Notes: generated by a model from the letters alone, not told the origin. Shown: positions 1-21,849, counted from the first letter of the whole stretch. The stretch: 63,995 nucleotides of DNA, filler included, from Porpidia crustulata (GCA_964255105.1; 3 parts of 3 records of this genome joined end to end with filler, not necessarily neighbours in it), one strand, 5' to 3'. Numbers and translations: made by a program.

Positions 1-638
1 CATTGGCGGAGTATCCCGGTGTAGAGTTTCGACCTCAATTCAGCTCTAAAACATTCGAGATACTTACTGGCTTTACAATTCCGAGCACTCTTCATATGAC
101 TGACAGATATTCAGCTTTACTGCAATGATGATCGATGGATCGGATATTAGCCGAGTTATTGTAGATTTTCTCATCCGTGAGGTATTACAAAGTCGGAGGA
201 GTGGAAGGTATTTTTACCAGGCAATACAAAGCTGTCATGGTTTAGGGCCCAGTCTGAAATTGGTTTGGGGAGGCCCGAAGGTCACCATTGATAGTCGTGA
301 TAATGAAATCGTTAGCGCCGCGCGAATATCTTATCATCCTCGGTCACCCGCGGCACAACAATACTCTCATTATCTCCGCTAGAAAGATCATCTCTACCAG
401 CACTGCCAAAGTTGGCACCGTAACCATCACTACCAATTCTTCATCAGTCATACTGGTACTCTAAGTACGATCAGAGTCCCCAAGCGATAATGGCAGGGAG
501 AAGTGGGATGCACTTGAAGTGCAAGTCTTCTACCTCACGCTACCATCCCCGCCCCAATAAACTTCATTGCCAAAGAAAACGCCTGCTGCTAATATCGTGT
601 CCTTGCCTTTATTGTGTCAATACTCTGTTCTCCCCATC

Positions 639-1702
639 TTACCTCCTACTAACAGGTCCATCATACAGCCTCCGTCTTCGGTTCAATATTGCGATCCCCC
701 ATAGCCATAGGGTTGGATACGTCTTTAAAGATCGGCCCTGGATGCGCAATAGCAAGGCAGAATACCGCAACGATGATCATTCTAACAAACTTGTCAGCAC
801 GCGCTCGTCTAATGTTGAGCCGACAACGATTGAGAGGGAGACACCTACACTCCTTCTAAGCCAAGGAAGAGCGGTTCATTATGTATCAATGGCCCATTAT
901 ACCCATCACTCAACTCATCGATTCGATACGCACACCGTATCAAAATCAGCAGGATGGCCAGGGCGAGGAAGCTGGAGAAGATCTTGAATCGCCCGGAGAG
1001 CTGTGTTTGGCTCTTCGAAGCTTTGACGTATCGTGATACGTATTCGGCCACCAAGGCAATGAAGATGCACAGTGTGAACACTTGGAAGGCGAGACCACCG
1101 ATGGAGACGTCGACGGCGGCTTTGGAACCGCCACCGGAGCCTGAGGAAAGAGCACCGCCGGCAGCTTGCAGGACGAGGGATAGGATATCGCAGGGGATGA
1201 AAACCCATAGGTAGAATTTTGGTGAGAATCGGGAGTATTGGGGACCAAGGTAAATGACTCTGGAGCCCATGTCAGCTATGTTACAGCAATCTCGCAACGG
1301 TCGCTGGAACTCTTACATCTTGTACAAGGTCAAGTATATTGCGGCTGTGAACCATGTCGGTCCGAGCGTGAGGCAGATGATTTGCATAAGAAAGCCGCTG
1401 AAGCTGAATGGATTCTGGTGAAGCATGATTCGTCCTCCGTATCCGATCACTTCGGCGACGATGCCCCAAAAGATGGTGGATGAAAAGAACCATGTCTTCC
1501 ATTTGAGTCCCATCAGAACGTGGATGATGAGCGCAATGATATAGAGGACCATAAAGGTTACATTGGCTGCAAGCGATGGGATGTATTGGTAGACGCCGTA
1601 CTTGGGGTCACAATAGTCGGGTCCGGCTTTCAATGTGCAGTTCGCGTCGCCTCCGTAGGCGATGAGACCGCGCAGCTTGGGATTCGTAGTTGGCATCTCC
1701 AT
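639..1702 (-). CDS. RTA1-family (lipid-translocating exporter, Rsb1/Rta1-like) 7-TM membrane protein; 3 exons (1702-1317, 1259-849, 781-639)
   Basis: ORFs 1313..1702 and 845..1297 are joined by a GTAAGA...CCAG intron. Family motifs EVIGYGGR, AAIYLTL, CDILSLVLQAAGG, LILIRCAYRIDEL and C-terminal HPG follow a second GTAGGT...TTAG intron; stop TAA at 641-639. Confidence 0.9.
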
Positions 1703-2447
1703 CCTGAAAGATTTTTAAATGTTGGCGATACCTAGGAGAGCTGAGGAATGGAGAATGGAGACCAGAAGAGCTAGCTGCTGGAATAGGATGTAAGGGAAGA
1801 TAGTCGAAAGAAGGATTGACACTAGGTCGAGAGATGTAAACTGGACAACCAATGTGGAATATCTTATTGAAGTGTTGTTGTCAACTTACTCGTACTCGTA
1901 ATGATAGATGGCGGAGTGCGAGATAGTCGTGATAAGGTATTGCAGGTGCAGAATGCGTTAACATCGACAGCGGCGCCTCCATGTCCACGATGGCAAAAGG
2001 ATCCAATCAGACCCTCGACATCGGACAGGATTGTGAAACGGCAATATAAAAGCATACAGGCAATTACTTCTGACGCTGAATGTGGAAGATTCCTCCAATT
2101 GGACGCGCACAAGGTGGACGAGGCAGCGAGCCTGCGGGAGAATATCGTACCGTCTATGACGTATTTTGCAGTAACTCCGTCTTCCAACGGAGATATATAT
2201 GCTTTGTGATCTGGCCGAATTTCATCATATGGTGGAGTTGTCGCTTCATTCATGACTTACGGACGTAACTGTCTAATGGTTCACAACAATCGGTCGCGTA
2301 ACAATCTACAGTCAGGTAGGCCATCTCAACTTTAGGTCAGAGTCTAAATGCTGATCTATTCAATGCAAGGGTACCCCATCTCATCCGACTACTCCGCTTC
2401 GTGTCGTTTCTATCGTCTACTGTGTTGGGAATGAAAACAGCACATGT

Positions 2448-4808
2448 CTAAAAAGCGCCTTTTTCTCCCAAAGACGTAGTCCTAGAGGTCATCATCCGGG
2501 TTTGAAGTTCATCCCAATCCTCTTGATTCCAGTTCATAAGATTGCCATCAAACAAAAATTCGGGAGGATGTAAGCTGAGGGAATCCTCGAGGTCATTCCC
2601 AATCATCGGCAGCAAGTGTTGGTTATCTGAGATTGGAGGGAATCCATCTGAGACTAGACTTCCCGACCATGGATCACTTCCCGATACTCGTAGCGGCGGA
2701 TCACTGCTACGCCGCTCAAAGCACTGTCTGGCACTTTTGAGGCTCTTTTTTACCATGGACAATGTTGGAACGACACGGAATAGCGAGTGCTTCGAAATGT
2801 TGTGCAGGTCCCGTGCAAGTTCTGCAAGTTCGGCTTGCCTCCCGATCATTCTCTCCTGATCCTCGAGTGAGCCGGCCATGGAGCGAGTGAAGAGCTCATG
2901 AAGTGCCCTACTGCACGTGTCGAGACCTAAAACTGCCATTTGTGGATTAGGAGACTCCGGAGAGTCGATGAGGACACTATGGGCTTCAGCTGGTTGGTCT
3001 AGGCTGCGTAAGCTATCCTTGAATACGGTAATGAAGCGGATAGCATCATTCAAAGTTGTTTTCGTGACTCGACTCGCTGATGCTCCTGGACTGGGTCGAG
3101 GAAATAGGAGATGGATTATCAGTATCCGATAAACCGACAGAGTGAAGATTTCTGAAGGATGGCTCCCCATTTGATTCTGGAATTTATCGAGGCCATCGGC
3201 CAAGATATCCCGGATCCTCCGACAGACGTCCGACAGGTTGTTGGGGCTTTCAAGAAGATGACGGAGTCGCGGTAAAGTTTGCGATACCCAACCACACGCC
3301 GGATTGGCGGTCGTCGCAATAGTGTGACGCGGATAGAGGGCATAAATGGATTCGATGGTAGAGGCAATATGGCTTAATGGCCACAGCTCAAGCATTGCTC
3401 TCTCCTGCGCTCCAAGTGTAGCAACGTTGCCAGATTCCTTATCTAAGGTAAGGACTGCCGAGGAAAATTCGTCTAGTGGTGGATATTTGACTTCAACTTC
3501 TAATGTCATTGGGTCAAGGAATGGTATGTCCATCTGCAACGCAGCCCACAATTCAAGTGCAAAGGTAAGCCAGTACATCCTTTGGCATAATTCCAATTCA
3601 ACCCTACCCACATCGACGCCATTAATCCAGTCAATCTCCGTCCTCGGCTCCTCATTGAGACGAGTATGGAAGTCGATTATTGCTACTCGCGCCACCTCCA
3701 AATAACAATAACCTCGTCGTGCCCGAGATAGGCATAGTTCGTGCCAACCAACCAGGATCAACGTCTGTATTAAGGGTAACGGTAAAGAACCTGCTTTCCG
3801 ATGGCATAGGCGGGATTGAACCCATTGAAATAACTTCTGTCCCGGATTGGATCCTGCTTCGTTGAAAGTAAAACTCGCACTAGCGAGTATTACTGCGAGG
3901 AGAGTTTCGTCGTGAGTGCCACTGCGGTATCCGTGAAGAAGTAAGGTTTTCGATACGATGAACGACAAAGGGTGGTGGAAGAACCATAGCTCAATCATTT
4001 GACAGACCTGATGATCATTGTACTTGGGAGGTGTTTCCACTTGCGTATGCGCATCAAACATGGTAACGCTTCTGTCTTGTGCGAGACTTGAGGCGAAGTA
4101 TGGAGTAAGAGTCTCATCGCGATGGCAAAGACCGAGAGAGCCGAAGCGAGCCGAGACTAATTCTACAAGTCCAGGAACAAGACCGAAAAATAATTTCTCA
4201 TAAGTCACTGTCATGGTTGTTGCATTTGCAAAGCCTGCCTGAGAATCTGGTGCAGCAGTATTCTTAAACATTCGTCCCCGGCTTAGTCTTTCGGATTCTG
4301 TTAGTGGCATCTTGCCATCGAGCATTGGCTCTTGTGGGGGGCAATCGAGGGAGATTCGGCGGAATGTGTGCTCCAATTCGGTGGAAATGAGATCGTCTTG
4401 CTTGAACATGCTTCCGCAAGATTTGGAAGGTACTCCAGCGCTTGCGGTGAGAGGTGTATGCCTTGAAGATTCTTTACGCAGTGGTGATCCAACATAGACC
4501 GGCAAAGGTCCGTCACTGGGATGATTCGGATTTTCGGGAAGCCGTTGGCCAGCCAGTTTCATGTTTTTTTGGGAAGAACTTCTCACTGAGGTAGAAGCTG
4601 ATGTCGAGCCTCGAGGACGGCCTTTGGAAGCTTCTCTCCCGTAAACGCAATCTAAGTTGCGCGCACGACAGGCTGCACAAATTCGCTGTCCAGAACACCG
4701 GATCTTGCGTAATCGACAAAAGTGGCAGCTTTTCCTTATGGCTGGAGACACGCCAGCGTCGACATTCTCCACAGCCATTTCGTCGGAATGAACGGGGAAC
4801 CCAGACAT
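2448..4808 (-). CDS. Zn(II)2Cys6 fungal transcription factor with fungal-specific TF middle domain, intronless; probable cluster regulator
   Basis: CHFCRLRKIRCSGQRICAACRARNLDC binuclear-cluster motif near the N-terminus; ELCQRMYWLTFALE middle-homology motif; first in-frame ATG at 4808 (alternative 4778). Confidence 0.92.
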   Translation of the reverse strand: MSGFPVHSDEMAVENVDAGVSPAIRKSCHFCRLRKIRCSGQRICAACRARNLDCVYGREASKGRPRGSTSASTSVRSSSQKNMKLAGQRLPENPNHPSDGPLPVYVGSPLRKESSRHTPLTASAGVPSKSCGSMFKQDDLISTELEHTFRRISLDCPPQEPMLDGKMPLTESERLSRGRMFKNTAAPDSQAGFANATTMTVTYEKLFFGLVPGLVELVSARFGSLGLCHRDETLTPYFASSLAQDRSVTMFDAHTQVETPPKYNDHQVCQMIELWFFHHPLSFIVSKTLLLHGYRSGTHDETLLAVILASASFTFNEAGSNPGQKLFQWVQSRLCHRKAGSLPLPLIQTLILVGWHELCLSRARRGYCYLEVARVAIIDFHTRLNEEPRTEIDWINGVDVGRVELELCQRMYWLTFALELWAALQMDIPFLDPMTLEVEVKYPPLDEFSSAVLTLDKESGNVATLGAQERAMLELWPLSHIASTIESIYALYPRHTIATTANPACGWVSQTLPRLRHLLESPNNLSDVCRRIRDILADGLDKFQNQMGSHPSEIFTLSVYRILIIHLLFPRPSPGASASRVTKTTLNDAIRFITVFKDSLRSLDQPAEAHSVLIDSPESPNPQMAVLGLDTCSRALHELFTRSMAGSLEDQERMIGRQAELAELARDLHNISKHSLFRVVPTLSMVKKSLKSARQCFERRSSDPPLRVSGSDPWSGSLVSDGFPPISDNQHLLPMIGNDLEDSLSLHPPEFLFDGNLMNWNQEDWDELQTRMMTSRTTSLGEKGAF

Positions 4809-5233
4809 TGCAGGTGGGAGGTAGGAGTACTTTGGAAGGGCCTTGAAGTACTTTGGACGCCTTTTTCTTCCGCGGATCCGAGATGCCAGTCCTGAGCCCA
4901 ACAACCATGCAAGGAGGGCCCACGCGACACCATGATGATGTGCCGTCCCTCACAAATCATGCCAGGCAATCTCTTTCGATATTGATAACCAAGCAGCGAT
5001 TGCCATGATGTCGGACAAGGGTTGGCAACAAGAGCCTCGATCGGAGAGCTAGTGGAGTAGTACAATAGTTTCAGCATCTCTTGGGTTCGTGCTAAGAGGC
5101 GAGATATAGTGCGATAATATCGGCGTCGGCTACAAGGGCTGTTTATGTTGAATGCACGTAAATACCTGCTGTCAGACTTACGGCAACTATACGAATAGTG
5201 CTCTATGTCATTGGGTCCCTCGGACGGGACCCT

Positions 5234-5251
5234 ATCGGCCGGGCCGCCGAT
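5234..5251. promoter_or_regulatory. Candidate Zn2Cys6 binding site: perfect inverted repeat ATCGGC-N6-GCCGAT (CGG-N8-CCG) in the divergent TF/PKS-NRPS intergenic region
   Basis: Sequence atcggc cgggcc gccgat, inside a CGG/CCG-dense patch (5221-5256). Zn2Cys6 proteins typically bind CGG repeats. Confidence 0.3.
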
Positions 5252-6342
5252 TCGGACATTTATTCGTCAGGGGGTATAAAAGTCATTGGACAGTTTGAAG
5301 CTAACACTTTTATCCAAAGTCGTCCAATGACTTTGGACGCCCCTGGTGGTTGTTGGTATCAGCTTAGTCAGATCAAGCTAGTCAATTGCACCTGCAACTC
5401 GCTATCACAACTCGAATGCAGACCCGCCTCATTCTCACATGAATCCGAATTCCATTAGCGAGAGCTGAGACAGTCTGTAACTGAGCTGATGAAGCTTATG
5501 GTAGTGGAGTTTTTGAGATGGCATGATCCAGGTCCCGAATGTATATTGATAGGTCAGCTTCCTAACTGATGTCCCAGAACCTTCCATATCACCATGTGCT
5601 TATCACACCATGCGGAATAGATTGCGAAGATCCCCAACAATTCGACACGGGATAATCAGGAGACATAGCGAGCTACTCCCACGATTTTAACCAACTTCAC
5701 GCACCTTCCTCCGTCCATCGATTGGAAGCTCTGCCAGCTAGCCACGTGTACGCTGTGCCACCCTAGAACAGCGATCTTCCAACGGCATTCAAGGCGTGGC
5801 ATCTTTTAAAGCGCTTGCACCTCTGTCCCAGGGCTATGACACGCCTAGTATTTTCAGCGGCCATGACAAAGCGAGAAGTAGCCGTTGAGACTGCTGCCTT
5901 TCTCGCAATCCTGGCTTTGACCACATGGCCGACAGGTCACGGAACATTTATCACGTCTCATGCTGCTGAAGCTTGATCAATCATCCCCTCCTTCACCTCT
6001 AGCTCCGCCCAACGACCTTGCAATCTCTCATTTTGTACCCAAGGATTCTCATTCTCCCATTTCCTTTTCGTCTTCCGTCTATTCTCGGATTTCATTTTAT
6101 GATGGGTTTCCATATGTCCGCTTGGTACTTCTTCTCCGTACCATGCTTGTCACCGTTTCCTTTCGGATGGATGAAGACTCCGCTCGTGGTCGGATGGCAT
6201 GTTTCAATGTGCTTAAAGCGCTTTTGTCATGTCGTCGTTAGTAGTGTCATGGAAAGAGCTTTATCACCACCAGGATACTTTAGCTCTGTTGTTTGGATCA
6301 ATTCACAGTCTTTTGATAATATATGTAAATTATTTGTAAACT

Positions 6343-9300
6343 ATGGCATCAGAAATTGGAACTCCCATGATGGTAGCAGCTACTTTTTCCCCTTTGAGCA
6401 GCAATGATGCAAGTGGGATACAGTCGCCTCGTGATTCAGAATCAAGCCAATCTTCGCTGGATTCTGGCGATGAGGCTCCAGTTATTCCAAATACTCCCAC
6501 GGTGGCAGACCCTTCGGTCATTGTCGGAATGGCTTGCCGCTTTCCCGGTGCCACCAGCGTTAGCAAGCTCTGGGAGGTTGTTGCCGAAAAGAATGACCTT
6601 CAGAGAAAAATGCCTGAAGATCGATTCAACGTGGATGCTTTCTACCATCCGCAAGGGACGAACAAGGGAACGGTAAATATTCCACCCAACTTCTTCAACA
6701 GTACTAATGATCTCAAGACCAATGCAAAATATGGTTACTTCCTCGATCAAGGCCTCGACGAATTCGACAATGAGTTTTTCCGCATCTCTGGAAAGGAGGC
6801 GGCGGCAATGGACCCTCAACAGCGACTTCTCTTAGAAGTCGTATACGAGGCTCTCGAAGATGGTAAGTCCCTATGAAGTCAGGAAATTAATGTGAACACC
6901 TTGAGCTTATAGAGAAAGCGGGCATCACTCTCGATGAGATCAGTGGAACGCAGACATCTGTCTTCTGTGGATCGTTTACCAATGACTATAACGCGATGAC
7001 AACAAAGGATCTTGCGCAATACCCAAAATATACTGTGACCGGCAATGGCAACGCTATTCTATCGAATAGAATATCATATTGCTACAACCTTCACGGGCCA
7101 AGCTTGACTCTTGACACAGCTTGTTCTTCATCACTGTATGTCCTTTTCAAGATCACTCCTTTCCCGACGGTATTGCGATTATGGAGACGAGAAATTGTCT
7201 GCCGAAAAAGATCTTTTGTTCTATTTATGAAATTGCCCTGTACCTTTTATGCTCATCATTGAAGACACCTGCTAACACTCAATGTCTTACTAGTGTCTGT
7301 TTTCATCTTGGTAACAAATCCCTACAAAACGGAGATGCTGAGATCGCAATCATAGCAGGATCTGCACTCCATTTTGATCCTAATATTTATATAACGATGA
7401 CTGACTTTGGGATGCTATCGACTGACGGTCGATGCCGTACATTCGATGCCAAAGGTAGCGGATACGTTCGGGGTGAAGGTGTCTCGGCTGTCATTCTAAA
7501 GAAGAAAAGTAGCGCAGAGCTGGCCGGAGATGAGATCAAATCGATTGTTCGTGGGACTGGCTCAAACCACGATGGCCTGAAAGATGGTCTGATGTTACCG
7601 AATGGAAAGGCACAAGCAGCACTTCTGCGACAGACATACAAGAATGCCGGGCTTTCGACAGCTGACACGGGCTATTTCGAGGTAAAACTCCCTGCTTCAA
7701 ATTCTCCAATACAAATTATTAGCTGCTAACATTTTTGAAGGCCCATGGGACTGGCACACCAGCGGGAGATCCTCTAGAAGCTAACGCCATAGGTAGCGTC
7801 TTCGCGCCAGATCGTGACCATCCACTGTACGTGGGTTCAATCAAGTCAAACTTAGGGCATCTCGAAGGCGCATCGGGCCTGGCTGGTATTATCAAGGCAA
7901 CTTTGAGCGTCAATGCAGGCAAGATCTTGCCAAATATGCATTTCGATACACCAAACCCAGTAATTGACTTCAAGAAATTGAAGATCGAAGTACCTACGGA
8001 GCTTATCGATTGGAAAACTGAGACCGGCGTGCGTCGAGCGAGCGTGAATTCTTTCGGATATGGTGGAAGCAACGCACATGTCATACTCGAGAATTATCGC
8101 CCCAAGCCGCGAGGAATGCTTGAAATCAAACCGTCGGACAAATTGCAAGTCAACAGGAGACCTTTCCTTGTACCATTGACATCCCACTCCAACGAGGCCG
8201 CCAAGCTTCTAATTTCAAGCATTAGCGACTACGTGCAGAGGAATCCTTTCGTAGAGACCGTCGATCTCTCATACAGTTTGAGCTTCAGACGTTCCATGCA
8301 CCGATATCGCTCGTTTGCTATTGGAAGCGACGCTGAATCCATATTGCAAGACCTTGCCAGCCAGAAGCCTACAGCTAAGTGGACCAAAGCCTTAGAAGGT
8401 AGCCCGAAGATCGGATTTGTCTTCACCGGTCAAGGAGCTCAATGGTACGCGATGGGAAGACAACTCATAGAGCAGTCATCAATGTTCAGACAGACAATAG
8501 AGAAATGTGATACGGTTCTACAGCGCCTTCCTGATTCGCCAGATTGGTCGTGTGTGGAGGAGCTTCTGAGATCTACCAAAGATTCCCGACTGACCCAGAG
8601 CCGTTTCTCACAACCTCTCTGTGCTGCTTTGCAGCTGGGAATCGTTGACCTTCTGCGAGCTTGGGGAATTGAACCTTCTGCTGTTGTTGGCCATTCCTCT
8701 GGTGAAATTGTTGCCGCGTATGCTGCAGGATCCCTTTCTTTTGAAAACTCAATTATATGTGCATACTATCGGGGACTGTACATGTCGAAAGGGACTGGAA
8801 TAGCAGCTACAGTCAGAGGAGCTATGATGGCCATAGGAATGACAGAAACCGAAGGCAGAGCCGAGCTGAAAGCATTTGAAGGACGCATAGCCCTGGCGGC
8901 TATCAACAGTCCATCCAGCCTCACATTATCTGGAGATGAGGATGCTATTATTGAGCTACAAGAAGCCCTCGAACGCAGAAAAGTTTTCACCCGCAAGCTA
9001 AAAGTTGAACAAGCATTCCATTCCCATCACATGGAGCCTCTCGCACCTGCATTTGAGCGGGCTTTATCCAATACACCAGGTTTCCGAAGTCAGGATGCCT
9101 TGATAAAGTTCTTCTCCAGTGTGACCGCCCGCGATTCCAGCGCCAGGAAAATGGATGCTGCCTACTGGGCAGCCAACATGACTGGCGTTGTTCTATTCTC
9201 CGATGCTCTGACAGGCCTCCTTCTGGACGGCAATGACGAGCAGGATGTTGATGTGCTTGTTGAGATAGGTGCACATCCAGCGATGAAAGGTCCTTCGAAT

Positions 9301-12300
9301 CAAATTATGAAGGCTTTGGGTGTGACAGTCCCTTACATTGCTTCGTTGACTAGAGAAGCGCCGGCATTTGAAAGCCTTCTTGCGACTGCGGGACAGTTAT
9401 TTTCTCTTGGATACCCTGTAGATCTGGCCGCAGTGAACAGCAGCCTCTCCATTGATAGTATGGGCAGGACCAGTCAAGTAGCAATTGGGCGAAAACTTCA
9501 AGACCTTCCGACATACTCATGGCATCACGGAAAGTTCTGGTCAGAGACACGGACAATCAAAGAGAATAGACTACGTACGCACCGTCATTCGTTATTGGGG
9601 GCTCCCATCCCTGGAGGACTAGGATATCATCCTCGATGGAGAAATTATCTCCGTCATGCAGAGATTCCGTGGCTGTCGCAACATGTGGTAGATGGAAAAG
9701 TGATTTTCCCCGCTGCAGGCTACATCAGTATGGCCATTGAAGCTATCGTTACACTTTCCCCGACGTTTAAGAATCTTGTTCTTCGGGATGTTGTTGTCAA
9801 ATCTGCGCTGGTAATCTCTGGCACTGACGCTGGCACGGAGATGATCACCGAACTGCAGCCACTTCCAACTTCTGCAAAGAACTCATCAAGCACATGGTAC
9901 CGATTTGCTTTATGCTCTTTTGATGAGAGTTATAAAACTGTTGAGCACTGCCATGGACTGATATGCGCGGAGAAGGGTGAGCCGGCTGCAGTTGCAAGCT
10001 TGGATGAATCTAGAAATGGATTTTCCCAAATGCAAAAAGCCACCAACCGCTGTAGACCGCCAGTACCATATTATCAACAGCTGAAGAAGATGGGAATCGA
10101 CTACAGCCAGGATTTCCAACTTATTTCCGGTGATATTGAGAGTGGGCCAGGATTCGCAATGGCTCCACTCACATTCTACCCTGCGAATGTCATTAGCACA
10201 CCTGCTGATGAGTGCATACTGCACCCGACGTTCTTGGATGCCTCTTTTCATACCATATTTGCTGCAATAGAGACGACGCAAGCGGGAAAATCTTTGGACG
10301 AAACCTTCGTCCCAACCTTCATCCGATCGATGACCGTATCTGGCCTGCTGAACAACAAAAAGTCCGATTTAGGGCGGCAAGATTTTTGGGTGAAAACAGA
10401 AACGGTTCTCCCTGGATCTCGCACTGCCATCAATCACTTGTCTATTCAATCCGATCGCTCGAACCAAGTTCTGGTCGACATGTCAGGATTCGAGGTCACT
10501 GCTCTTGGAAACGTATCATCAGACGATCAAGCTAAGCGCTCGCTGTTTTTCCAGATTAGGTGGCTCCCAGCGTTTGACTGTCTTGGAAGGAATAAACATC
10601 TGCCCTCCTTTGACAATATAGCAGGAGTATTGGATGTTTTTTGTCATCAATTTCCAAACTCCAAAATACTTCATCTCACTTCTAGTCTCGACATTACTCG
10701 AGAATGTCTCCGTTACTTGGGAGGGCACCAAAACGAGCGCCGTCGATTCCAGAGCATCACACCCTATTCGCAATCAATGTCTTTCCTAGAGTCAAGGCAG
10801 CACCTAGTCGATGAATGGGCTAGGCTCGTCGATTTTGAGGAGCCCAAGGCGGACTATTATGACCTTATTGTCATCAGTGAACCTGTCGAAGATCATGTAC
10901 TAGACTTCCTCAAGACGGATGGTTTCGTAGTCAGCGACAGGGTGGACTTCAATCCTCGCGGCTTGGCTGATGTTTTCCGGGGCCCTAGATACAGCTCATA
11001 TCAGAAGTCTACGCCTCGACCGATCTCCAAAGAAAGCTTGACCTTGCTGGTCTCTCCCACAACCTCTGACTCTACTGTGGCACTCGCTTCGGTAATTGAA
11101 TCACAATATCAGGGTAAAGTTACAAAGCTGATAATCACTGATATGCTGAAGTCGCCTCCCTCAAGCCAGAACATCATCTCGCTTGTAAGTCTTGATGAGG
11201 ATATGTTCTTTGAATCATCTGTAGATGATTTAGATAGGTACCACGCAGTCCAAGCTCTGCTAAAAAGAACAGATACAACTATATTGTGGATTCTAAATGG
11301 GGCGAGCCATGAAAGCTCAAATCCGGCCCAAGCCATGTTCTTGGGTCTTGCAAGAACAGTCCGAAGTGAGAATGAGGACATGAGATTCTTGACTCTCGAT
11401 CTCCCTTACGAGTATGATGTTGAGAGCAGCGGCAAAAAGGCTGTCGAGCTTTTCGGCAGTTCATTTACAGAGGACGAGTTCGCTGAGCGTGACGGCATTC
11501 TGCAAATTCCACGAATAGAAGTTGACGACGTACTGAACAGGAAATTGCCAAACGGAGGTCATCGACAACCTCGACTTGAACAATTCAGTCAGAATCGAAA
11601 TCTTGCCTTGAAGATCGGAAGAGTTGGTCTGCTAGACACTTTGGTATTTGAAGATGATGAATTTACTATGGACTCTCACCTGGACGATGATGACGTCGAA
11701 GTAAAGGTCAAAGCCTCAGCTCTCAATTTTAGGGACATCGCAGCTTCGATGGGTATCATTGACGATTATCGCTTAGGCGATGAATGCGCCGGCGTGGTCA
11801 CCCGTATCGGACGTAATGTGAAGGAAGAGGAATTTCGGCCAGGAGACCGCGTGCTAGCCTTTAGACCAGGACAAGGTTCTCATCGGTCAATTGTCAGGAA
11901 CCCTGCCATTCTTTGCCAGAAGATAGGAAATATGGACTTTGTGACTGCAACATGCATTGAATCGGTCCTTACCACTGCCTATTACTCTCTGATTGACACC
12001 GCAAGGCTACAACCAGGCGAATACTGTCTCATCCATTCGGCGGCTGGAGGTGTCGGACAGATGGCTATCCAAATTGCGCAGATGGTGGGTGCGAAAGTTA
12101 TCGCAACAATCGGTTCTCAGAGCAAACGAGACTTTTTGAAGGAAAAGTTTGGCTTAGAGGATGGAATGATCTTCAATTCCCGCGATTCGTCTTTTGTTGA
12201 GGGCGTGATGAAGGTTACTGGCGGGAGAGGCTGCGATGTTGCTCTAAATCAATTAGCAGGAGAGCTCCTCCATGCCACGTGGAGCTGTGTTGCACCATTC

Positions 12301-15300
12301 GGCCGGCTTGTCGAGATCGGAAAGAGAGACATTCACGAAAACACAAAATTGGATATGGACCCGTTTCGCCACAACATCTCATATTCTTCGATAGATCTCA
12401 TCACTCTATTCAGACTCAAGAAACCACTTCTCGGACGTCTCATGCGTGACTGTTTCAATCTCATCCAGGATGGTAAGATTATTCCTGCGAGTCCAATCAC
12501 CGAAGTATCCTACGCAGAAGCTCAAAAGGGATTCCGGCTGCTCCAGATGGGTAAGGTCTTTGGAAAAGTTGTTCTGGTACCTGGAGAAAACGACCTTGTG
12601 CCAGTTACACCCATTACGTACCAAGACAGACAACTGTTTGAACCCGCTAAGTCATACCTCCTGGTTGGTGGACTAGGCGGTATTGGACGTAGCTTGGCTG
12701 AGTGGATGTTCCGCAAGGGAGCGCGACACTTGGCTTTCCTTTCACGTTCGGGCGCCAATCATGGCGATGCAGAAGCTACAGTGGATTGGCTCAAGGCGAG
12801 AAACGTCAAGGTTGACGTATTTGCTGGAGATGTTGCAGATATCAGTGTTGTGAAAAGCTGCATCCGATCGCTTGGCAATGACCTCGCGGGGATCTTCCAA
12901 GCTGCTATGGTGCTGCGGGACCTGCCTTTCGCGCAAATGACCCTCGAGCAATGGCAAGCTTGTGTCACTCCTAAAGTTCGCGGAACGTACAACTTGCACA
13001 AAGCAACGATCGAGCTCAACACGAATCTCGATTTCTTCATTGGCTTCTCTTCAGCTTCTGCTATCGTCGGTGCAAAAGCTCAGGCTAACTACGCCGCTGC
13101 GAACGCCTATATTGATGCATTGATGCGTCAACGCCGGCAAAATGGACTTCCAGGCACGACTATGAATGTTGGTATGGTTGGTGGAGTCGGTGCGGTGGCT
13201 GAGGATGCCGGCCTACAAAAGGTCATGGAACGTATGGGCTACGAAGCCATAAGCGAAGTGGAACTATTCTATCAAATTGAGGAGGCTGTCACAGCCCAAT
13301 CGTCGCCTCTTAAGACAGCTCAAGAAGTCGATGATCATCAGATTATCACTGGTCTCAACATGCAAAGGAAAGATTTATATTGGGCTACCAAGCCTCTATT
13401 CCGAAATATCTATGCGAATCTCGACATTGGAATCAGTGCCGTGGCACCAGGTGTCGTTAATCTGATGAAATTGTTACAGGATGCGGGAACTGTCGAAGAA
13501 AGAACGAGCGTTCTAATGGCCGCTTTCATTGAAAAGATCGCTAGCGTTCTGTCAGTTCCTGCTGCTACGATTCAATCCGGGAATCCTCTCTCTGCATATG
13601 GCCTCGACTCAATTGTGGCTGTTGAGTTTCGAAAGTGGTTCTCTAAAACTGTGGCTGTTGATGTGTCACTTTTTGATATCCTTGGAGCAAAGTCTATCGA
13701 GGGCTTGGTCACAAAGATTAGTAAAGAGATCGCGACGACCGCCGCCGAGGTGCCAGTTGTTATATCAAATACAGCCGGTTACCAGGACTCCAAAACTGGA
13801 GAGGATGAAGTAGGCCGCACAACCAAGCAAACCCTTGCACAGGAGCTACAGATTATGCAGAAGCCAGAAAGAATCCCTATGTCAACATTCCAGAACCGTA
13901 TCTGGTTTCTTCACAATCTTCTCGAAGACCCAAGTTCTCTCAACTTCGTGATCGTGTCCCACATTGAAGGTCAGCCAGACCTCCATCTACTGCAAAAAGC
14001 ATACACCGAGTGCGCAAGGCGGAACGACATTCTTAGAACTCGATACTTCGAGGGCGATGAATTTGCTGAGCAAGCAATTATGGAGCAGAATAGTACCAAG
14101 ATAGAATCTCTTGATGTCTCAATCGATCCTCAACCCGAGAAAGCCCTTCAACGGTGCATCGCAGACACGCGCTCCATACCTCTGGACATTGAAGATGGGG
14201 AAATGATGAGGTCTATCCTGGTCAAACTAGCCGATGCACGATTTGCTTTGGTTCAAACATTCCACCATATCGCCCTCGACAATGGCAGCACCAAGTCCAT
14301 CATGGACCAATACGCAGGATTGTATGACGCTTTTCATGGCGAAAAAGATCTATCTATCGTGGCAGCTCCGCAAATCTCGTACTCGGACTTCACTGTCTGG
14401 CACAAAGACCATATGCAAACGAGACAACTTAAGGAAGACACAAGATGGTGGGAAGTTAAATTCAATGGTGCTGTTGGTGCTAATAGCCTCCTGCCTTTTG
14501 CGAAATCACAACGTCCGACGAAGCGCGGAAGTTCAAGGTCTATCTTGAGGCATACGCTTGGGCTGCCACTGCTAAAGCGGTTAAAGAGGGTCTGCACTCA
14601 GACCAATGTGACTCCATTTCAATTCCTTCTCACGGCCTTCCGCGCGTTCATTCATCGTTACACGCAAGAGGATGATCTGACTGTTTTGATGATTGATGGC
14701 AATCGCTCACACCCAGGTACGTATATTTCTGACTTGTGACCCTTCACTTTCGCGTTTCAGATTGCACGTAGAACAGCATAATGAAACCCTCGTCAAAGTC
14801 ATTGGTCAATTCTTTTTCTTTCACTCGTATTCGCTTTCGGAAGGAGACATGCTGACTTCAGAGGACTTGCTAGATCTAGAAGACGTCCTCGGATTTTTCG
14901 TCAATATGATTCCTCTTCGATGCCAAAACAACTGCGATACCAGCTTCGACAAACTCCTGGGACAAATGAAAGAGACAGTTCTTGAAGGCTTGGCTCACAG
15001 CCAGGTTCCATTTGACATCATTGTCAACGCTTCCAAAGTGAACACAGACCCTAGTCATTTCCCACTTGGTCAGTTGGTTGTTAATTATCAGATGTACGGT
15101 AAACCTCCTCAGTACAAGACGGCGGATTTCAGCATTGTAGATGTCACTATCGAGGACATTCCAACAGCAGTTGAAATGCAATTAGAAGCAATTGAAGATC
15201 CGAATTCGGGGCTGCAACTGCGATTCGAGTATGATTCCTTATTATATGGGGCTCAAGACATGGATCGATTTTTTGAGAACTTCACAACCTTCGTCAAGAG

Positions 15301-18300
15301 CGTTATACAAGATCATCTGCAGCCAGTAGACGAGATTGAAATGTGCGGTCCTAAAGAATTGAAACACCTCGAAGCTAGATGTTGGGCGGGTGATCTTCAG
15401 ATGAACGCATGGAACGATCAGTCAATTGTCAGCAAGATCATGGGATTTGCAGAAAGCCAACCTCAAGCGACTGCTATCATAACCTCGGATGGTGAAACAA
15501 TCACCTATGCAGATGTTGTTCTCAAAGGTCAAAAAATTGCTTCTCTACTCGGAGAAGCTGGGATCATGCCAGGTCAATTTGTCGGTATTTTATGCCAGCC
15601 TGGTATTGAGATGGTTACAGCTATGATTGGTGTTGCCTACATGCGATGTGGCTACGTACCTTTGGACCCGAAATTCGCACAGGGACGACTTGCCCATATG
15701 ATACAGGATTCTTCAGCTTCCATCGTATTGATTGGTACTGGTATGGACTTGCTTGTTGATGATATTTCTCGATTGCATGGAATGTCCGTATTGAAAATTC
15801 CAATTTCCTCCTCACCTTCTACACAAGATTTCGGTTTCCGCAATCCAGCGTCTGCCTTAGATCCATTCTATGTGATCTATACTTCGGTGATTTCCCCCAT
15901 ATTCTTAGTAAGATATCTTAGCTAACACATAGAAAATTAGGGGAGCACTGGGAAGCCAAAAGGCGTTGCTCTCACTCACGATAACACTCAAGCCATGTTG
16001 AGCAGTCACAATCAGCTTCACGGGTTCAATTCGCAGGACGTAATTCTCGCTCATTCGTCGATGTCTTTCGATCTCTCTGTGGCTCAGATATGGGGCTCAT
16101 TGACCTCTGGAGCTACTATGGCTTTGGCAACTCAAGAAGCAAGACATGATCCTGTTCAGCTCGCACAGTTTATGCGGAAAGCGGCTGTCACGATCACATA
16201 TATTCCGGCAACCCAATATGCTTTAATGCTGGAACACAACTCCCAAGATTTAGGACAGTGCTTGAGTTACCGTCGGGCTCTTTTCGCTGGAGAATATCTG
16301 CCAGTTCGGCTGGTCAAAGCCATCTACGACCTCGGGTTGCCAGTAGAGATTTTCAACCAATGGGGTCCTACGGAAACTACTGCGCAAACCACTTCGCACA
16401 TGGCTCCCTATCCCGGCCCTACGGAACTCAATATTCCAATTGGGCACCCCATCCCCAATTGCTCCCACTACGTTGTGGATCGACGCATGAGACCTGTCCC
16501 TGCAAGAGTTGTTGGAGAGCTTTGCATTGGCGGTGTTCAAGTTGGTCGCGGATATCTAAATCGACCCGCTGCTACAGGGCAAAACTTTGTGGAAGATAGT
16601 TTTGCTTCAGAAAGCTTCCGCGCTCAAGGATGGAAGACCCTTTACAAGACAGGAGATAAAGGTTGTTTTTTACCCGATGGGCAGATTGAATTCAAGGGCC
16701 GTATCTCTGGTGATAAGCAAATCAAACTTCGTGGTCACCGCATCGACTTAGCTGAAGTCGAGAACGAGATCCACCTTGCCGGTCAGCACCTCGTGGGGCA
16801 AAAGATTGTCGATGTTGCCGTGTTGCCATGCGCTTCTGCAATTGAGCAGACAGGATTGACCGATGACCGTCGACTCGTTGCTTTCATTGTCCTCAGTCGA
16901 GCATGCACTACTGCCGAGCAACGAATGATTGTCAACTCCTTGCGAAGGCTTCTCAGCCTAAGGCTAAATGATTACATGGTTCCCAGTGGTTGCCGGTTTA
17001 TGAACACTCTGTCTACACTGGTCAGTGCAAAAATTGATAGGCAGATGCTGCTTCAAAGTGATCTTAACCTGATCTACCCCTCATCGTGCCCGGATCCTGG
17101 AGAGCTGGAGAAACAAGGAGATCACGAGTTTCTGTCGTCGGTAATCGAAGCCTTCAAAGAAGTTTTGAAAATTGGCCACGATCGAGAGATCATTCCGACA
17201 GAGAATTTCTTTGATCTGGGTGGCCAGAGTATACTTTTACTTCGACTTCGAGCTGTGCTCAAACGCAAACTCAATGTTGAGATATCATTAACGGAGCTGT
17301 TCCAGCATCCCACACCACTAGGCATAGCCAAAAAGATACTGGAATATCCTGATGAAGAGAATCAACTGGCTTCAGCCGCTATGTTGACCGAAGGAGCAGT
17401 AAATTGGCAGAATGAGGCAATTCTACCCAACGACAGTCGTTACCATGTGAAGTCTACCGCTTTACAACTTCTTCGCTCTGATATCACAGAAATACTGGTC
17501 ACAGGTGTTGATTCATTCACTGGCGGTCATATGCTTGCGGAGCTTCTATCCGTCTACCCTTCTACACAGTTCCATGTTATGGGCTCGGAGGTAGAGCTCA
17601 CCCCTTTCGATCTATCGGCTATCTTCGAACAGTGGCAGCTCTTCGGTGATTCCGTCACCCAAGAAAGTCTGGATTCCAGGACACACTGCGTACCAGGTAC
17701 ACTCTCCTTGGCTCATTTTGGTCTGGACGAGCAGAAGTTTCAGGAACTTGGAAGAAGTGTCCAGGCAATATACCATTTCGGCGGCCAAGTTTCGCTACTC
17801 AAGACCTATCACGATCTTAAACGCCTAAATGTCGGAAGCACGCTCGATCTCGTGGAATTAGCCCGGTACGGCACCTATCTCACCGAGATTCACTATCTCT
17901 CAACCTGGAGTGTCGCGCACCTGCAATCGTGGACTAGTACCAAACGCAGCCATTCTACCGTCGACACGAGTGAGAGTAGCCCCATTCACTTCCAGCCCGG
18001 GGGCGGCGAGACCTTGGGATACTTCAAATCCCGCTGGGTGGCCGAAATGCTTCTATATGAAGCTTCGAATCGAGGCTTCCCTATCTCCATCTACCGGGCT
18101 TCTGCAGTCACAGCCAGTACAACTTCTAGTCTTGCGACCCCGGATGATAATTTCACTCACAATATGGTCCTTGGTATGATTAAGCTGGGACACATTCCAG
18201 ATTTTGGCAGTGTCGGCCCAGAGCCTACTATTGATTTCGTCCCTATCGACTATCTCGCCACGGTACTAGCTCGCCTATCAAGGAATGACCTCGTTCGCAC

Positions 18301-18637
18301 GGACAAGAGTTTAGCATACTACCATATCGGCAACCCGGCCCCGCTACCTCTGAAAGCGCTTCCGGACTTGATGGCTGAAGTCCGCGATGACGGTAGAGCA
18401 GGCTCTACTCTGCCTTTATTGGAGTGGGCTACACAGATGCGGAAGCACGGCGAGAACGATGATCAGGCACAAATGCAGTGGACTGTCTTTAAGGAATTTC
18501 TTGACATGGGGCATACGATGTTTTCTCTGGATGATACGAAGACAAAGGAAGCTTTGAAAATTATGGGAGATGGTTATGCATTTTGTCCGCCTATCGATGA
18601 AGAGTATCTTAGGACTCTGCTCAAGAGCCAGGGATAG
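6343..18637 (+). CDS. Iterative hybrid highly reducing PKS-NRPS, ~3921 aa: KS-AT-DH-psiMT-ER-KR-ACP-C-A-T-R; exons 6343-6672, 6718-6862, 6919-7135, 7294-7681, 7741-14716, 14874-15886, 15941-18637
   Basis: [35 protein letters not shown] and [18 protein letters not shown] and [33 protein letters not shown] and [40 protein letters not shown] (split by intron), [23 protein letters not shown]-terminal SDR-like R. Six GT-AG introns give an open frame of 11766 nt. Confidence 0.96.
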
Positions 18638-19127
18638 TAAGTCTCATCCCTTCTCTACACAGGCGTCGGCGTGTACTGACTTCCGCAGGAAATCCTGTAG
18701 AAGGCAGAAGAGACAGAGATTCCAGCGAAACATTTCCCTCGGTCGACCAATTCAGGCAGGGGATAGTGGACCTTTGTTCCACGCGTCGCCCATTACTTGG
18801 TTGACGGCCTCCTCATTCTGGCAAAGTGCCCCCGAAGCAGCGCCCGCTTCCAAGTCACATGTTGCTCCGCCAAAAAGCTTCCGTAGATAAATGGCTGTAG
18901 GTGTTTTCCCCATCGACTTTGTTATATACTGTCTTGTCTTAAGATTTCTTTGTTATACGAGGGCGCAAAAATACAATGTCTTCAGGGACTTCTCTTCGAT
19001 AGCTCATTAGATCGTAGTATATAGTGTTAGATGTATGGACTCATATAGATCGTATAAGTGTGAGCCGATAGAGTTATAGATATTAATCAAATTTAATGTA
19101 TATAACTGTCAATAGTAGAATGTCTCC

Positions 19128-19482
19128 GTCTATAACGAAAAGTCGAATGTGAAGAAAATCTCGTTCACATCACTGTGAAAATGATCGTCTTGTAGCGTTA
19201 CAAATGTTTAAATAATTCATTCTTTCGACAGTAGATCTCGAGACTTTTAGTTCTATTCTAAATCATTTTATGTTTTTAAGAATCAGATGTCGAGCAGTAC
19301 AGCAGTCGCACGATGTGTTTTGTTATTAATAAACTGAGTTTGCTTCTTCGCAGACGCATTAATCTACAGATCGTCGTTTAACTTCGATAATGCTTTTAAC
19401 TCGTCAGTATGCTCTTTATTAAACTCTGCTCTGAAATCGCACGAAAATTATGCGTGTTGAGCGTGATTTTAAATGACTTGCG
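19128..19482. other. AT-rich tract with no CC or GG dinucleotide; probable RIP-like mutated relic
   Basis: No CC or GG between the CC at 19126-19127 and the GG at 19482-19483, while CA, TG and CG are plentiful. Confidence 0.7.
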
Positions 19483-19671
19483 GATATAAAAAGCGACTGT
19501 CAGCGTCTGCGAGAGACTGACGCGAGTCGCGGTGTCCAAGGTCGGTAGTCGCTCGGTCTTGTTGCTGTGCGCTAAGGCTACTCTCCTTTGACAGACATTC
19601 ATCCATAAACGTGTTCTTCCCAATGCTTCATTGTCACTCGATCGGCCGTTCGGAAAAAGATTGGACTTCAC
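19140..19671 (-). pseudogene. Possible degenerate HET-domain (heterokaryon incompatibility) gene relic
   Basis: Minus-strand fragments EALGRTRLWMNVC...RLPT, then KLNDDL*INA (cf. KLGxxYLWIDA) and LLSKE*II* (cf. PLxxRGWxxQE), in the expected order but with stops and frameshifts. Confidence 0.3.
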
Positions 19672-19747
19672 TCAACGAGAACTAGCCGACGTTCACACAC
19701 TGCCAGATTCCGTCCGACATCCTCCAGCTTGAACAACACGAGACAAC

Positions 19748-20231
19748 ATGGCGGCGACAGACTCCTCGATCCGCTCCAGCTGCCACTGCGGCGCCATCAC
19801 AGTCACAGTTCCCCGGCTCCCCGACTACGTCAATGTATGCCAATGCACGATCTGTAGACGCTACGGCGCCGCTTGGGGCTACTACCATCCCGACGAAGTA
19901 AAGATCGAAACGAAGCCGAACGCAGTGATCAAGCAGTATGTCTGGGGCGATCGAGACCTGTCTTTCCACTTCTGCGATAAGTGCGGTCGCGTGTGAGTCG
20001 AGCAGTTTTTGCTCCATTCGATCGAAGACTGATGTTGTGTACGGTAGATGCTATTGGTGGCCCATTCGACCTCCGCCTACCGATGAAGGAGAATACAAAA
20101 TAGGACTTAACACAAACAATATCGATCCCGAGCTCCTGAGGTTCGTCGATCGAAAGTTTGAGTATTCGGTTTTGATGAGCCCGCTGCAGTCGAAGGATAC
20201 GGCGCATCCTAATGATCCGGCCAAGTATTGA
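19748..20231 (+). CDS. GFA/CENP-V family (glutathione-dependent formaldehyde-activating-like) zinc protein; intron 19993-20047
   Basis: SCHCGAI, CQCTICRRYGAAW and FHFCDKCG motifs; a GTGAGT...TAG intron joins ORF 19748..19996 to CYWWP...GLNTNNI. Confidence 0.88.
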
Positions 20232-20519
20232 ATACCGCGTCGAACCAGTGCAATACGCAGATGCCTTATAGATTGATTCACGAAACTTATTGCCGCATAC
20301 CTGAACGAATGTCTTCGTTCTGTGCTTATGATAGTCGTTACTGCTGTCCCAAAGTCTGCCTCGGAACTTTGAAAACCGTTGCAAACTCCAAAGCTTCATC
20401 AACAACATCACTTCTTCAACTTCCTTCTCCGACAACGCAACGTCATACCGAAACACACTCAGCGGCCCATAGCAACAGCAGCAATCACTAGGAAACGAAT
20501 CCCGTTGATACAAACCAGC

Positions 20520-20981
20520 AAATCATGGTATTTCTATCAGCACCCCTCCAAATTACTCCCGCCATCTTTCTCCTTTACCTCTTCACCGCATAAGATCCTG
20601 CTCCTAATCGCACACCCAGACGACGAAGCAACGTTCTTCGGGTTTGCTCTGCGCTACCTCACCCACCCAAGTCTCGGCAACCAAATAGTAGTCCCCTATT
20701 TCAACAGCGGCGATACCGACGGTCTAGGCCACATCCGCAAATCCGAACTCCAAAAGTCCGCCCTGCAACTCGGCATCACCTCCACCGAATACGTCGTCGT
20801 GATCGAGGATGAGAAGTTTCCGGATTCCATGACCACGAATTGGGATCCGAAAGCCATTGGGGCGATTTTACTTAGGTATTTCGCGCCGGAAATTGCCCAC
20901 ACGCCTAGTACTGCGGCATCAATAGTCTACATCGACGGATCTTGTACTTCCTCGTTGGACCCCGCGCGCTGTCGCAAATGA
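20520..20981 (+). pseudogene. Truncated PIG-L/GPI12-like GlcNAc-PI de-N-acetylase
   Basis: LLIAHPDDEATFF, GDTDGLGHIRKSEL and FPDSMTTNW are present. There is no in-frame ATG/TM leader, and the frame stops at 20981 before the TFD..GVSGHxNH motif. Confidence 0.65.
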
Positions 20982-21222
20982 AATAATACGACCAACTGCA
21001 TTGTCACGTGTTCGGACGAGGTATGATTCATTAGTTGAAGATCTTACAGCCTATGAAATATCCCGCTCTCAAATCGACCATTGATTCCTCAAAAAAACTA
21101 CAATCACCACCTGATGCCCCAGCTGCGCTCTCCCACGTCTTCACGATGACGCCGAACTCAAATCCCAGAGCTTCCCATACGTCACTGGTAGACTCCTCCT
21201 GGAAGCCGTACCGCTGTAGCTC

Positions 21223-21749
21223 TCATTTTAAGAGCCCATCCCCAACCCGATCATCCACGTTTTTGCAAAGCTCAACTGTCTCGGTCCAGAGTTTCTCAGA
21301 GAAAAACTTCCCATCAGCGGTGTCCGCGTAGGGGGCAAGTCTGAGAGAGATCGGGTTTGCTGATTAGCGTGCATACTTTCTTCCCGTTTGAGGCGGGAAA
21401 AGGGATTGGGTTATAGAGAGAGAGAGAGAAATTTGTCGACTTACGGACTAATCTCATTACTAGCAAGGTACCGACCATGCGATTCTTCGCCCGCAACTGC
21501 AGCCGCGTAGACCAAAGTCCTCGCACCCTCTTGCACCGTCCTCGCGCGCAGCTTGCGGTTCCAATTCATAGGCAGCCGCATATAAAACGGCAAATTGTTA
21601 TCGGCAGCCGTATCGACCGTTCCCGGACAAAGATTGTTGATGACGACGGCGTCGGTTCCTGCTCGGTCGGCCGTGTGTTTCGCCATCTCCCGTATGAACA
21701 TGGCGACGAGCATTCTGGAGTCCGGGTAGCGCGAGAAGCGGGAGTATTG
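21223..21749 (-). CDS. Short-chain dehydrogenase/reductase (retinol-DH/WWOX-like), 3' part only; 5' end lost in the gap; intron 21444-21341
   Basis: RYPDSRMLV, VVINNLCPGTVDT, ARTVQEGARTLVYAA and SHGRYL motifs; final exon ...EKLWTETVELC...LLK*. Confidence 0.8.
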
Positions 21750-21849
21750 NNNNNNNNNNNNNNNNNNNNNNNNNNNNNNNNNNNNNNNNNNNNTTAATTA
21801 ATTAANNNNNNNNNNNNNNNNNNNNNNNNNNNNNNNNNNNNNNNNNNNN
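21750..21849. other. Assembly gap: N44-TTAATTAATTAA-N44 artificial spacer
   Basis: N runs flank a 12-mer that has stops in all six frames; identical to the spacer at 43583-43682. Confidence 0.97.

Follow-up and report, generated by a model that had tools for sequence, protein, structure and literature searches.

A polyketide synthase–peptide synthetase hybrid with a built-in enoylreductase in Porpidia crustulata and its predicted place in the pyranonigrin-type family

Genes and domains at the locus

The sequence analysed here (the window) is a stretch of 63,995 nucleotides from Porpidia crustulata (GCA_964255105.1), consisting of three parts of three records joined end to end with filler. It contains a gene for a polyketide synthase fused to a non-ribosomal peptide synthetase (a PKS-NRPS, hereafter the hybrid), together with a divergently oriented regulatory gene and a gene for a membrane protein. 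An earlier note on this sequence had described the three as a self-sufficient cluster built on a hybrid with an apparently active enoylreductase (ER) in cis and a deleted methyltransferase. Judged by its sequence, the hybrid is a member of an ER-bearing family without a functional methyltransferase, the pyranonigrin-type family that includes PynA, PyrA and PytA (clade Ia-A). The three genes are as follows.

661–1702, minus strand: RTA1-like seven-pass membrane protein gene; exons 1702–1317, 1259–849 and about 781–664 (approximate, the last intron being uncertain)
2448–4808, minus strand: Zn2Cys6 transcription factor gene; single open reading frame (ORF), first ATG at 4808, divergent from the hybrid gene
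6343–18637, plus strand: PKS-NRPS hybrid gene; exons 6343–6672, 6718–6862, 6919–7135, 7294–7681, 7741–14716, 14874–15886 and 15941–18637

The RTA1-like gene matched Pfam PF04479 (RTA1) in two ORF pieces (9.9e-42 and 1.3e-16), and the regulatory gene matched Zn_clus (3.3e-06) and Fungal_trans (2.5e-04). The exon junctions of the hybrid gene are frame-restoring GT-AG candidates selected by alignment with 10 homologues, and the acceptor of the intron in the C-domain region was likewise set at 14873 by homologue alignment. The resulting model has seven exons and a single, terminal stop codon, with a predicted product of 3,921 amino acids. All seven exons are open, the splice sites are canonical and the product is collinear end to end with each of the full-length homologues aligned (16/16). 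The intron at 6673–6717, in the N-terminal region of the KS, is an in-frame intron of 45 nt (GTAAAT...TACTAAT...CAAG); reading through it adds 15 residues that are absent from all nine aligned homologues having the N-terminus.

The intact gene model counts against one very unlikely alternative, in which the locus is silent or the ER goes unused and the product, if any, would be an unreduced polyene-type tetramate like pyranonigrin A. This alternative draws on pyranonigrin A itself, the product of PyrA, which reportedly has a short unsaturated side chain. The reading preferred here, developed below, is that the ER is used and that a partly reduced chain is released as a tetramic acid.

Pfam matches on reading-frame pieces, together with structural modelling of the region between DH and ER, gave the domain order KS-AT-DH-psiMT-psiKR-ER-KR-ACP-C-A-T-R. 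The domains are located as follows.

6517–7948, plus strand: KS; Pfam ketoacyl-synt and Ketoacyl-synt_C; DTACSSS, EAHGTGT and NLGHLE; three introns within
8416–9372, plus strand: AT; Pfam Acyl_transf_1 (3.6e-57); GHSSGE at 8689–8706
9586–10518, plus strand: DH; Pfam PKS_DH_N and PS-DH; a ten-residue motif at 9682–9711
10570–11019, plus strand: psiMT; methyltransferase-fold core of about 150 residues without the S-adenosylmethionine (SAM) glycine loop; ILHLTSSL at 10666–10689
11020–11520, plus strand: psiKR structural subdomain; Pfam PF23114; match to the short-chain dehydrogenase/reductase (SDR) fold in the model
11590–12576, plus strand: ER of the medium-chain dehydrogenase/reductase (MDR) type; Pfam ADH_N, ADH_zinc_N and ADH_zinc_N_2; a 23-residue motif stretch and EIGK...IDL
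12652–13179, plus strand: KR; Pfam KR (9.9e-59); GGLGGIG at 12667–12687
13504–13737, plus strand: ACP; Pfam PP-binding and ACP_SdgA_C; GLDSI at 13600–13614
13870–15370, plus strand: C (condensation); Pfam Condensation in two pieces; HHIALD at 14263–14280; spans the intron 14717–14873
15449–16800, plus strand: A (adenylation); Pfam AMP-binding in two pieces; spans the intron 15887–15940
17141–17332, plus strand: T (thiolation); Pfam PP-binding (7e-13); GGQS
17498–18634, plus strand: terminal R-like SDR domain; Pfam NAD_binding_4 (3.6e-36); non-canonical TGVDSFTG and YFKSR

By this architecture the predicted protein is an iterative PKS of the highly reducing type that continues into a single NRPS module. 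The catalytic motifs of the KS, AT, DH, KR and ACP are all present.

The enoylreductase and the methyltransferase stump

The ER motifs named earlier were recovered in place: LNFRD at 11722–11736, IHSAAGGVG at exactly 12031–12057 and GRLVEIG at 12301–12321. Alignment with the ER of CurK covered about 11590–12576, close to the extent first proposed (about 11600–12580). Active ERs of known structure aligned along the entire domain (CurK, 1.3e-44; human fatty acid synthase, FAS, 6.6e-44), as did mycocerosic acid synthase (MAS) and the ER of a spinosyn module. When a 1,300-residue query running from DH to KR was used, FAS and MAS aligned contiguously over ER and KR, whereas the best-scoring stretch for PsoA and LovB covered the KR part only (query 1020–1252/1279), indicating that the ER of the hybrid is not of the 'ER0' type. 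The canonical PsoA and LovB do lack this ER, in line with the earlier statement that characterised hybrids usually carry an inactive ER0.

Identity of the ER to 19 homologues was 59–72%, compared with 66–78% for the KS and 53–72% for the AT, while the DH, C, A and R domains were less conserved than the ER. The motifs NFRD, GGVGQ, TxGx3K and EIGKRD with its downstream Asp, a list taken from PMC12881047, were found in 20/20 family rows. The hybrid reads GQMA where FAS and CurK read GQAA; GQMA is also found in 17 of the 19 homologues, including PynA, and GQIA in two rows from shorter proteins that end with the C domain (PKS-C). The Lys of EIGK and an Asp about 26 residues further on are aligned with residues of the FAS ER that we take to be the proposed proton donors of the animal enzyme. 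With its full-length match to active ERs and its motifs kept in every family row, the cis-ER looks functional, as had been suggested. An ER that is among the best conserved domains, with motifs invariant across distant fungal classes, would also be unexpected if the domain were unused, and this is the second argument against an idle ER or a silent locus.

No methyltransferase Pfam family matched the linker between DH and ER even at E<=10, the sole match being PF23114. Alignment of the linker (350 residues) with 51 family proteins and modelling gave a confident structure (pLDDT 86.7, pTM 0.86). The model matched the CMeT-psiKR region of PsoA (Z 18.6, 324 residues, chain 1274–1823) and that of LovB (Z 18.1, root-mean-square deviation 2.6, 315 residues, chain 1269–1823), and the same two proteins were top-ranked by Foldseek. 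Model residues 24–173 (window about 10570–11019) matched SAM-dependent C-methyltransferases (PsoF, Z 14.0; CalH, 13.5; CurJ C-MeT, 12.1; DszA, 11.5), residues 174–333 matched SDR folds, and the whole model matched KR structural subdomains at a Z of about 15. As its halves superpose on C-methyltransferases and SDR folds, the linker is best read as a methyltransferase core of about 150 residues followed by a psiKR. It has about 340 residues against about 555 for a canonical CMeT plus psiKR, and is about 210 residues shorter than that of LovB. The sequence ILHLTSSL lies on a strand-loop-helix at model residues 55–70 (strand 55–59), which we take to be the place of SAM motif I with its glycine-rich loop.

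The methyltransferase remnant placed earlier at about 10560–10990 was therefore found, at about 10570–11019 and with its SAM motif replaced, but it is not a recent deletion. The linker aligned over 90–100% of its length in 19/19 homologues, at 31–40% identity only, showing that the stump is family-wide. C-methyltransferase activity of the hybrid is impossible.

PsoA (9x29) and LovB (7cpx) have the order KS-AT-DH...KR-ACP-C(-A-T-R) in common with the hybrid. They differ from it in having a full C-MeT and no ER fold, so that a separate ER is needed, where the hybrid has a 330-residue ER and a methyltransferase stump. The TenS, ApdA and CcsA types are grouped with the C-MeT-bearing, ER-less synthases that use a LovC-like trans-ER. 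No second ADH_zinc_N or LovC-like ORF was found among the 46 ORFs of at least 110 amino acids outside the hybrid gene in the whole window, nor among 83/122 ORFs of at least 50 amino acids in 1–2500 and 18500–30400; small multi-exon genes could escape both searches, and the sequence covered begins at position 1. The earlier statement that the window holds no trans-ER thus stands.

An intact and highly conserved ER, in a window with no methyltransferase, trans-ER or tailoring enzymes, is the starting point of an alternative put forward in the earlier note. The hybrid would act like a FAS, joining a fully saturated, unmethylated chain to one amino acid to give a lipoamino acid or, by reductive release, a sphingoid-like amino alcohol, for which the regulator and the RTA1-like exporter would suffice. 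We consider this unlikely, and the evidence from the relatives, their neighbouring genes and the terminal domain, which bears both on it and on the preferred release as a tetramic acid, is given below.

Relatives and their gene neighbourhoods

When the linker-ER region was used as a query for homologues, 1,289 of 8,000 scored candidates matched at E<=0.001, and 120 of these were listed. The matches listed include hybrids of about 3,900 amino acids from many ascomycete classes and from several lichen fungi. Among them, the closest named relative is KAK0511414 of Cladonia borealis (66.2% identity over 3,921 aligned columns) and the best partial unnamed relatives are 73–74% identical to the hybrid, while EKG19785 of Macrophomina (P0083) is 55% identical. 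A match in Aspergillus niger (P0085) belongs to a 90%-identity cluster holding the Swiss-Prot entry PYNA_ASPNC, 'Hybrid PKS-NRPS synthetase pynA'. PynA and the hybrid are collinear and 50.5% identical (residues 3–3897 and 16–3921, respectively). The earlier note had not recognised a characterised pathway and had named a close match in MIBiG as evidence that would tell against it. Such a match exists at moderate distance in PynA (BGC0001124), and with a full-length collinear homologue there and the relatives EKG19785 and EOD43397 in clade Ia-A, that view is not supported.

PynA (An11g00250), the pyranonigrin E synthetase of Aspergillus niger, has a Pfam architecture identical to that of the hybrid, including the MDR-type ER and the lack of a methyltransferase, and the same ER motifs and non-canonical R motifs. 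The pyn cluster has no trans-ER and includes a Zn2Cys6 regulator, pynR, and the window likewise lacks a trans-ER and contains a Zn2Cys6 gene. Among the differences, no counterpart of the thioesterase PynI, the N-methyltransferase PynC, the flavin-dependent monooxygenase (FMO) PynG, the cytochrome P450 PynD or the protease-like PynH was found in the window, where the RTA1-like gene is present instead. The missing tailoring genes make it unlikely that the product of the hybrid is a pyranonigrin.

According to the published accounts, the tetramic acid made by PynA is assembled from L-serine, acetyl-CoA and six malonyl-CoA (PMC7902601; PMC8362661). The thioesterase PynI is required for its release, and PyrA possibly acts with a hydrolase, PyrD (PMC7345139). 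A paralogue of PynA with 53% identity to it, PyrA (An18g00520) is the enzyme behind pyranonigrin A (PMC7326050). These characterised family members yield tetramic acids with beta-keto and unsaturated carbons, which speaks against a FAS-like, highly reduced chain and the lipoamino acid or sphingoid mimic once proposed.

A phylogenetic tree of 32 rows, built with FastTree from the KS to the C domain, midpoint-rooted with no outgroup and leaving out the other Ia sub-clades, fell into two clades. One contained PynA and proteins from Paecilomyces, Teloschistaceae lichens and Pseudogymnoascus. The other comprised a fully supported set of 7 rows (the hybrid, the Cladonia protein and unnamed relatives), a group from Botryosphaeriales and Xylariales, Phlyctema and forms of about 2,830 amino acids. 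In the text and Table S2 of Minami et al. (2020), the 'pyranonigrin' clade Ia-A includes PynA, PytA and proteins from Byssochlamys, Endocarpon and Pseudogymnoascus as well as Macrophomina EKG19785 and Neofusicoccum EOD43397. A trans-ER is marked absent in every sufficiently sequenced Ia-A row of that table, and EKG19785 and EOD43397 are entered without hydrolase, trans-ER, FMO or P450. The same authors use neighbouring FMO and P450 genes to define the pyranonigrin clade. A literature search for PKS-NRPS with a functional ER domain returned no paper on a cis-ER hybrid among its matches. The 'ER' label given to hybrids in a Verticillium paper was discarded as evidence, the label having been applied indiscriminately.

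The Cladonia borealis protein KAK0511414 has the same architecture as the hybrid and falls in the same 7-row clade, while its identity of 66% points to another genus or family of lichen fungi. A PynA-like hybrid is described in PMC8304397 as widespread in Cladonia, without the thioesterase and PynBCDEFR, and a different product is expected there. The Cladonia family in question, FAM00220, resembles the visible part of the present locus in these absences. In antiSMASH tables for lichen genomes, the cluster matches are to pyranonigrin E or wortmanamide, with wortmanamide in Cladonia borealis.

The forms of about 2,830 amino acids (from Talaromyces marneffei and two Aspergillus) are KS-AT-DH-ER-KR-ACP-C proteins in the same major clade, with the same ER motifs, but they stop after the C domain where the hybrid goes on with A-T-R. 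TwmB, the wortmanamide enzyme, is reportedly a PKS-C or 'truncated PKS-NRPS' in the work of Hai and Tang in 2018 and a possible member of this clade. TwmB was not present by name among the 120 relatives listed for the T. marneffei protein. Related PKS-C enzymes are reported in PMC11153888 to make N-acyl amides, which would favour the FAS-like alternative if these enzymes are tied to the family of the hybrid. GLPKS3 of Glarea lozoyensis (P0190; 3,006 amino acids, with an ER) is also a member of the family. It is said to have a separate partner, GLNRPS7, made from a dicistronic transcript.

A metagenome search gave 511 confirmed matches, and 80 loci were kept. Among these, six (L004–L008 and L012) have a hybrid about 52% identical over the large exon. 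A Zn2Cys6 homologue (36–38% identity over about 710 residues) was found upstream of the hybrid in L005, L006, L007 and L012 and in part in L008. Upstream of the hybrid in L007 (Pfam 4.7e-27) and in L012 there is an RTA1-like gene, at about 30% identity, and another may lie at the edge of L001. Upstream of the hybrid in L003 there is a thioesterase gene (PF00975, 3.4e-18), with homologues in L009 and at the far upstream edge of L005 and L006, about 9.5 kb before the hybrid. As L005 and L006, and also L007, L008 and L012, probably come from the same or sister organisms, the independent cases are few. Related hybrids are commonly accompanied by the regulator, and occasionally by the RTA1-like gene or the thioesterase. 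The synteny of RTA1, Zn2Cys6 and hybrid genes raised in the earlier note therefore recurs, but in only some relatives. That RTA1-like genes adjoin related hybrids in L007 and L012 is again in favour of the FAS-like alternative and its exporter.

In L003 (10001–16463) most of the PKS part is missing: homology to ACP-C and A-T-R sets in only about 1 kb after a match to the N-terminal part of the KS (65%). The upstream genes are the thioesterase and a cytochrome-P450-reductase-like gene. The hybrid of L003 may be truncated or rearranged.

The remaining features of the window lie downstream of the hybrid gene.

19733–19993, plus strand (that of the hybrid): GFA-like ORF, directly downstream; PF04828 (9.6e-10)
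20373–20978, plus strand (that of the hybrid): PIG-L-like ORF; PF02585 (1.1e-10)
23558–24934: PNPOx/FAD-like ORF
27492–28714, minus strand: major facilitator superfamily (MFS) gene
30276–63567: genes for adenylosuccinate synthetase, alpha-SNAP, a pepsin-like protease, a GDP-mannose pyrophosphorylase-like protein, Myb/HSA and WD40 proteins, eIF2-gamma, clathrin heavy chain and pyruvate carboxylase

Some ORFs without family matches are also present in the stretch up to 30 kb, and the housekeeping block at 30276–63567 is the right-hand limit of any cluster. The aspartic protease gene at 36830–37708 was considered as an analogue of PynH and ruled out, as it lies 18 kb away amid housekeeping genes and has a full pepsin-family match. 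There are four runs of 44 N, at 21750–21793, 21806–21849, 43583–43626 and 43639–43682, and the first two break ORFs without family matches 3' of the PIG-L-like gene.

Among the ORFs of the window, whose left flank ends at position 1, no Pfam match to a thioesterase, hydrolase, FMO, P450 or methyltransferase was found. The visible flank extends 6.3 kb upstream of the hybrid gene and about 660 bp past the RTA1-like gene, where the window starts. With so little sequence beyond the RTA1-like gene and thioesterases accompanying relatives, the completeness of the cluster cannot be judged, and this is a further point against the FAS-like alternative. The description of a self-sufficient three-gene cluster is therefore not supported, in view also of the need of PynA for PynI and of the non-canonical R domain.

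The release domain and the likely product

The terminal R-like domain has a full SDR fold (MxaA R, 4.5e-26; PsoA R, 4.7e-18). However, TGATGFLG and GYAQSKW of the MxaA R domain are replaced by TGVDSFTG and GYFKSRW. In all 17 family R domains compared, that of PynA included, Ser or Thr takes the place of the second Gly in the NADPH loop, and Arg that of the catalytic Lys. The domain of the hybrid keeps the Ser/Thr and Tyr of the SDR triad. Loss of the second Gly and the catalytic Lys argues against reductive release, and hence against a sphingoid-like amino alcohol, and the deviations are in keeping with the separate thioesterase that PynA reportedly needs.

The same observations bear on a further alternative, also improbable in our view, in which the terminal domain is a working thioester reductase that releases an aldehyde, with cyclisation to a pyrrolinone-type product. 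The full-length SDR fold, the retained Ser/Thr and Tyr and a domain length conserved across the family are consistent with it. Against it stand TGVDSFTG in place of TGxTGFLG and the Arg in place of the catalytic Lys. In addition, a Knoevenagelase-type hydrolase gene is missing from the window and is marked absent throughout clade Ia in Table S2 of Minami et al. (2020), and PynA, whose R domain shows the same features, reportedly yields a tetramic acid when aided by PynI.

The 10-residue code of the A domain is DLATLAQAQK in the hybrid, DLVTLAQVQK in Cladonia KAK0511414 and DLVTLATVQK in PynA, with the positions assigned on the assumption that they can be mapped through the GrsA motifs. The code of the hybrid is identical to that of the Ser-activating PynA at seven of the 10 positions. 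The equivalents of Asp235 and Lys517 are present, and an alpha-amino acid is therefore expected. The substrate predicted from the code is perhaps a small polar alpha-amino acid.

We favour, with a probability of roughly 0.6, a reading in which the hybrid makes an unmethylated, partly reduced acyl chain, joins it to a small amino acid and releases it as a 3-acyl-tetramic acid of the pyranonigrin-type family. In the PKS part, acetyl and malonyl units would be assembled into an unmethylated chain, with the cis-ER carrying out enoyl reduction in some cycles only. If these are the early cycles, as is probable for PynA, the chain would have a saturated tail and, after it, unsaturated and beta-keto carbons. 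It would be joined by the C domain to the small alpha-amino acid loaded by the A domain, and the resulting beta-ketoacyl-aminoacyl thioester would undergo a Dieckmann-type cyclisation to the 3-acyl-tetramic acid. The catalyst of this step would be the non-canonical R-like domain or else a discrete thioesterase whose gene lies outside the window. Regulation of the cluster probably falls to the divergent Zn2Cys6 gene, and the RTA1-like protein may serve in export of, or tolerance to, an amphiphilic product.

Several points weigh against this reading. In the tree the hybrid groups with the relatives from Macrophomina and Neofusicoccum, its clade being the sister of the one that holds PynA, and we know of no characterised member of its own clade. 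The timing of reduction follows a comment that UniProt is said to carry for PynA, in which the ER is probably active during the first two rounds of extension and so gives the saturated tail of pyranonigrin E. No thioesterase is visible, a tblastn search of the window with the L003 thioesterase having produced nothing above noise (best E 0.18). From work on CpaS and EqiS, the catalytic Tyr of the SDR triad is said to be lost in Dieckmann-type R* domains, and as the R-like domain retains this Tyr its chemistry cannot be assigned to a type. The A-domain code differs from that of PynA at three of the 10 positions, so that the substrate cannot be named. Finally, the synteny of the transcription factor and RTA1-like genes is partial and of low identity (36–38% and about 30%, respectively).

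Within the preferred reading, the sub-clade of the hybrid has no FMO, P450 or visible thioesterase, and RTA1-like and Zn2Cys6 genes are often nearby. As FMO and P450 genes are missing from its surroundings, the hybrid probably leads not to a pyranonigrin but to a simple acyl-tetramate (or an N-acyl amino acid) as end product. A more tentative suggestion, which we regard as possible but doubtful, is that this lichen and Botryosphaeriales sub-clade makes undescribed simple amphiphilic acyl-tetramates or N-acyl amino acids that are released by the Tyr/Arg R-like domain alone, with the RTA1-like protein acting as exporter or in self-protection. If true, release by a Tyr/Arg-type R-like domain alone would be a chemistry not yet described.

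A cis-ER is unusual among textbook hybrids. It is, however, the defining feature of an entire clade that is already catalogued and has characterised members, and the ER alone is therefore no discovery. The conserved non-canonical R-like domain, with its Gly loop lost and Lys changed to Arg, raises the question of its role in chain release for the entire family, PynA included. To our knowledge, almost no PKS-NRPS products have been assigned in lichen fungi. The lichen, Botryosphaeriales and Xylariales branch is widespread and lacks the pyranonigrin tailoring genes, and assignment of its product would fill a real but modest gap.

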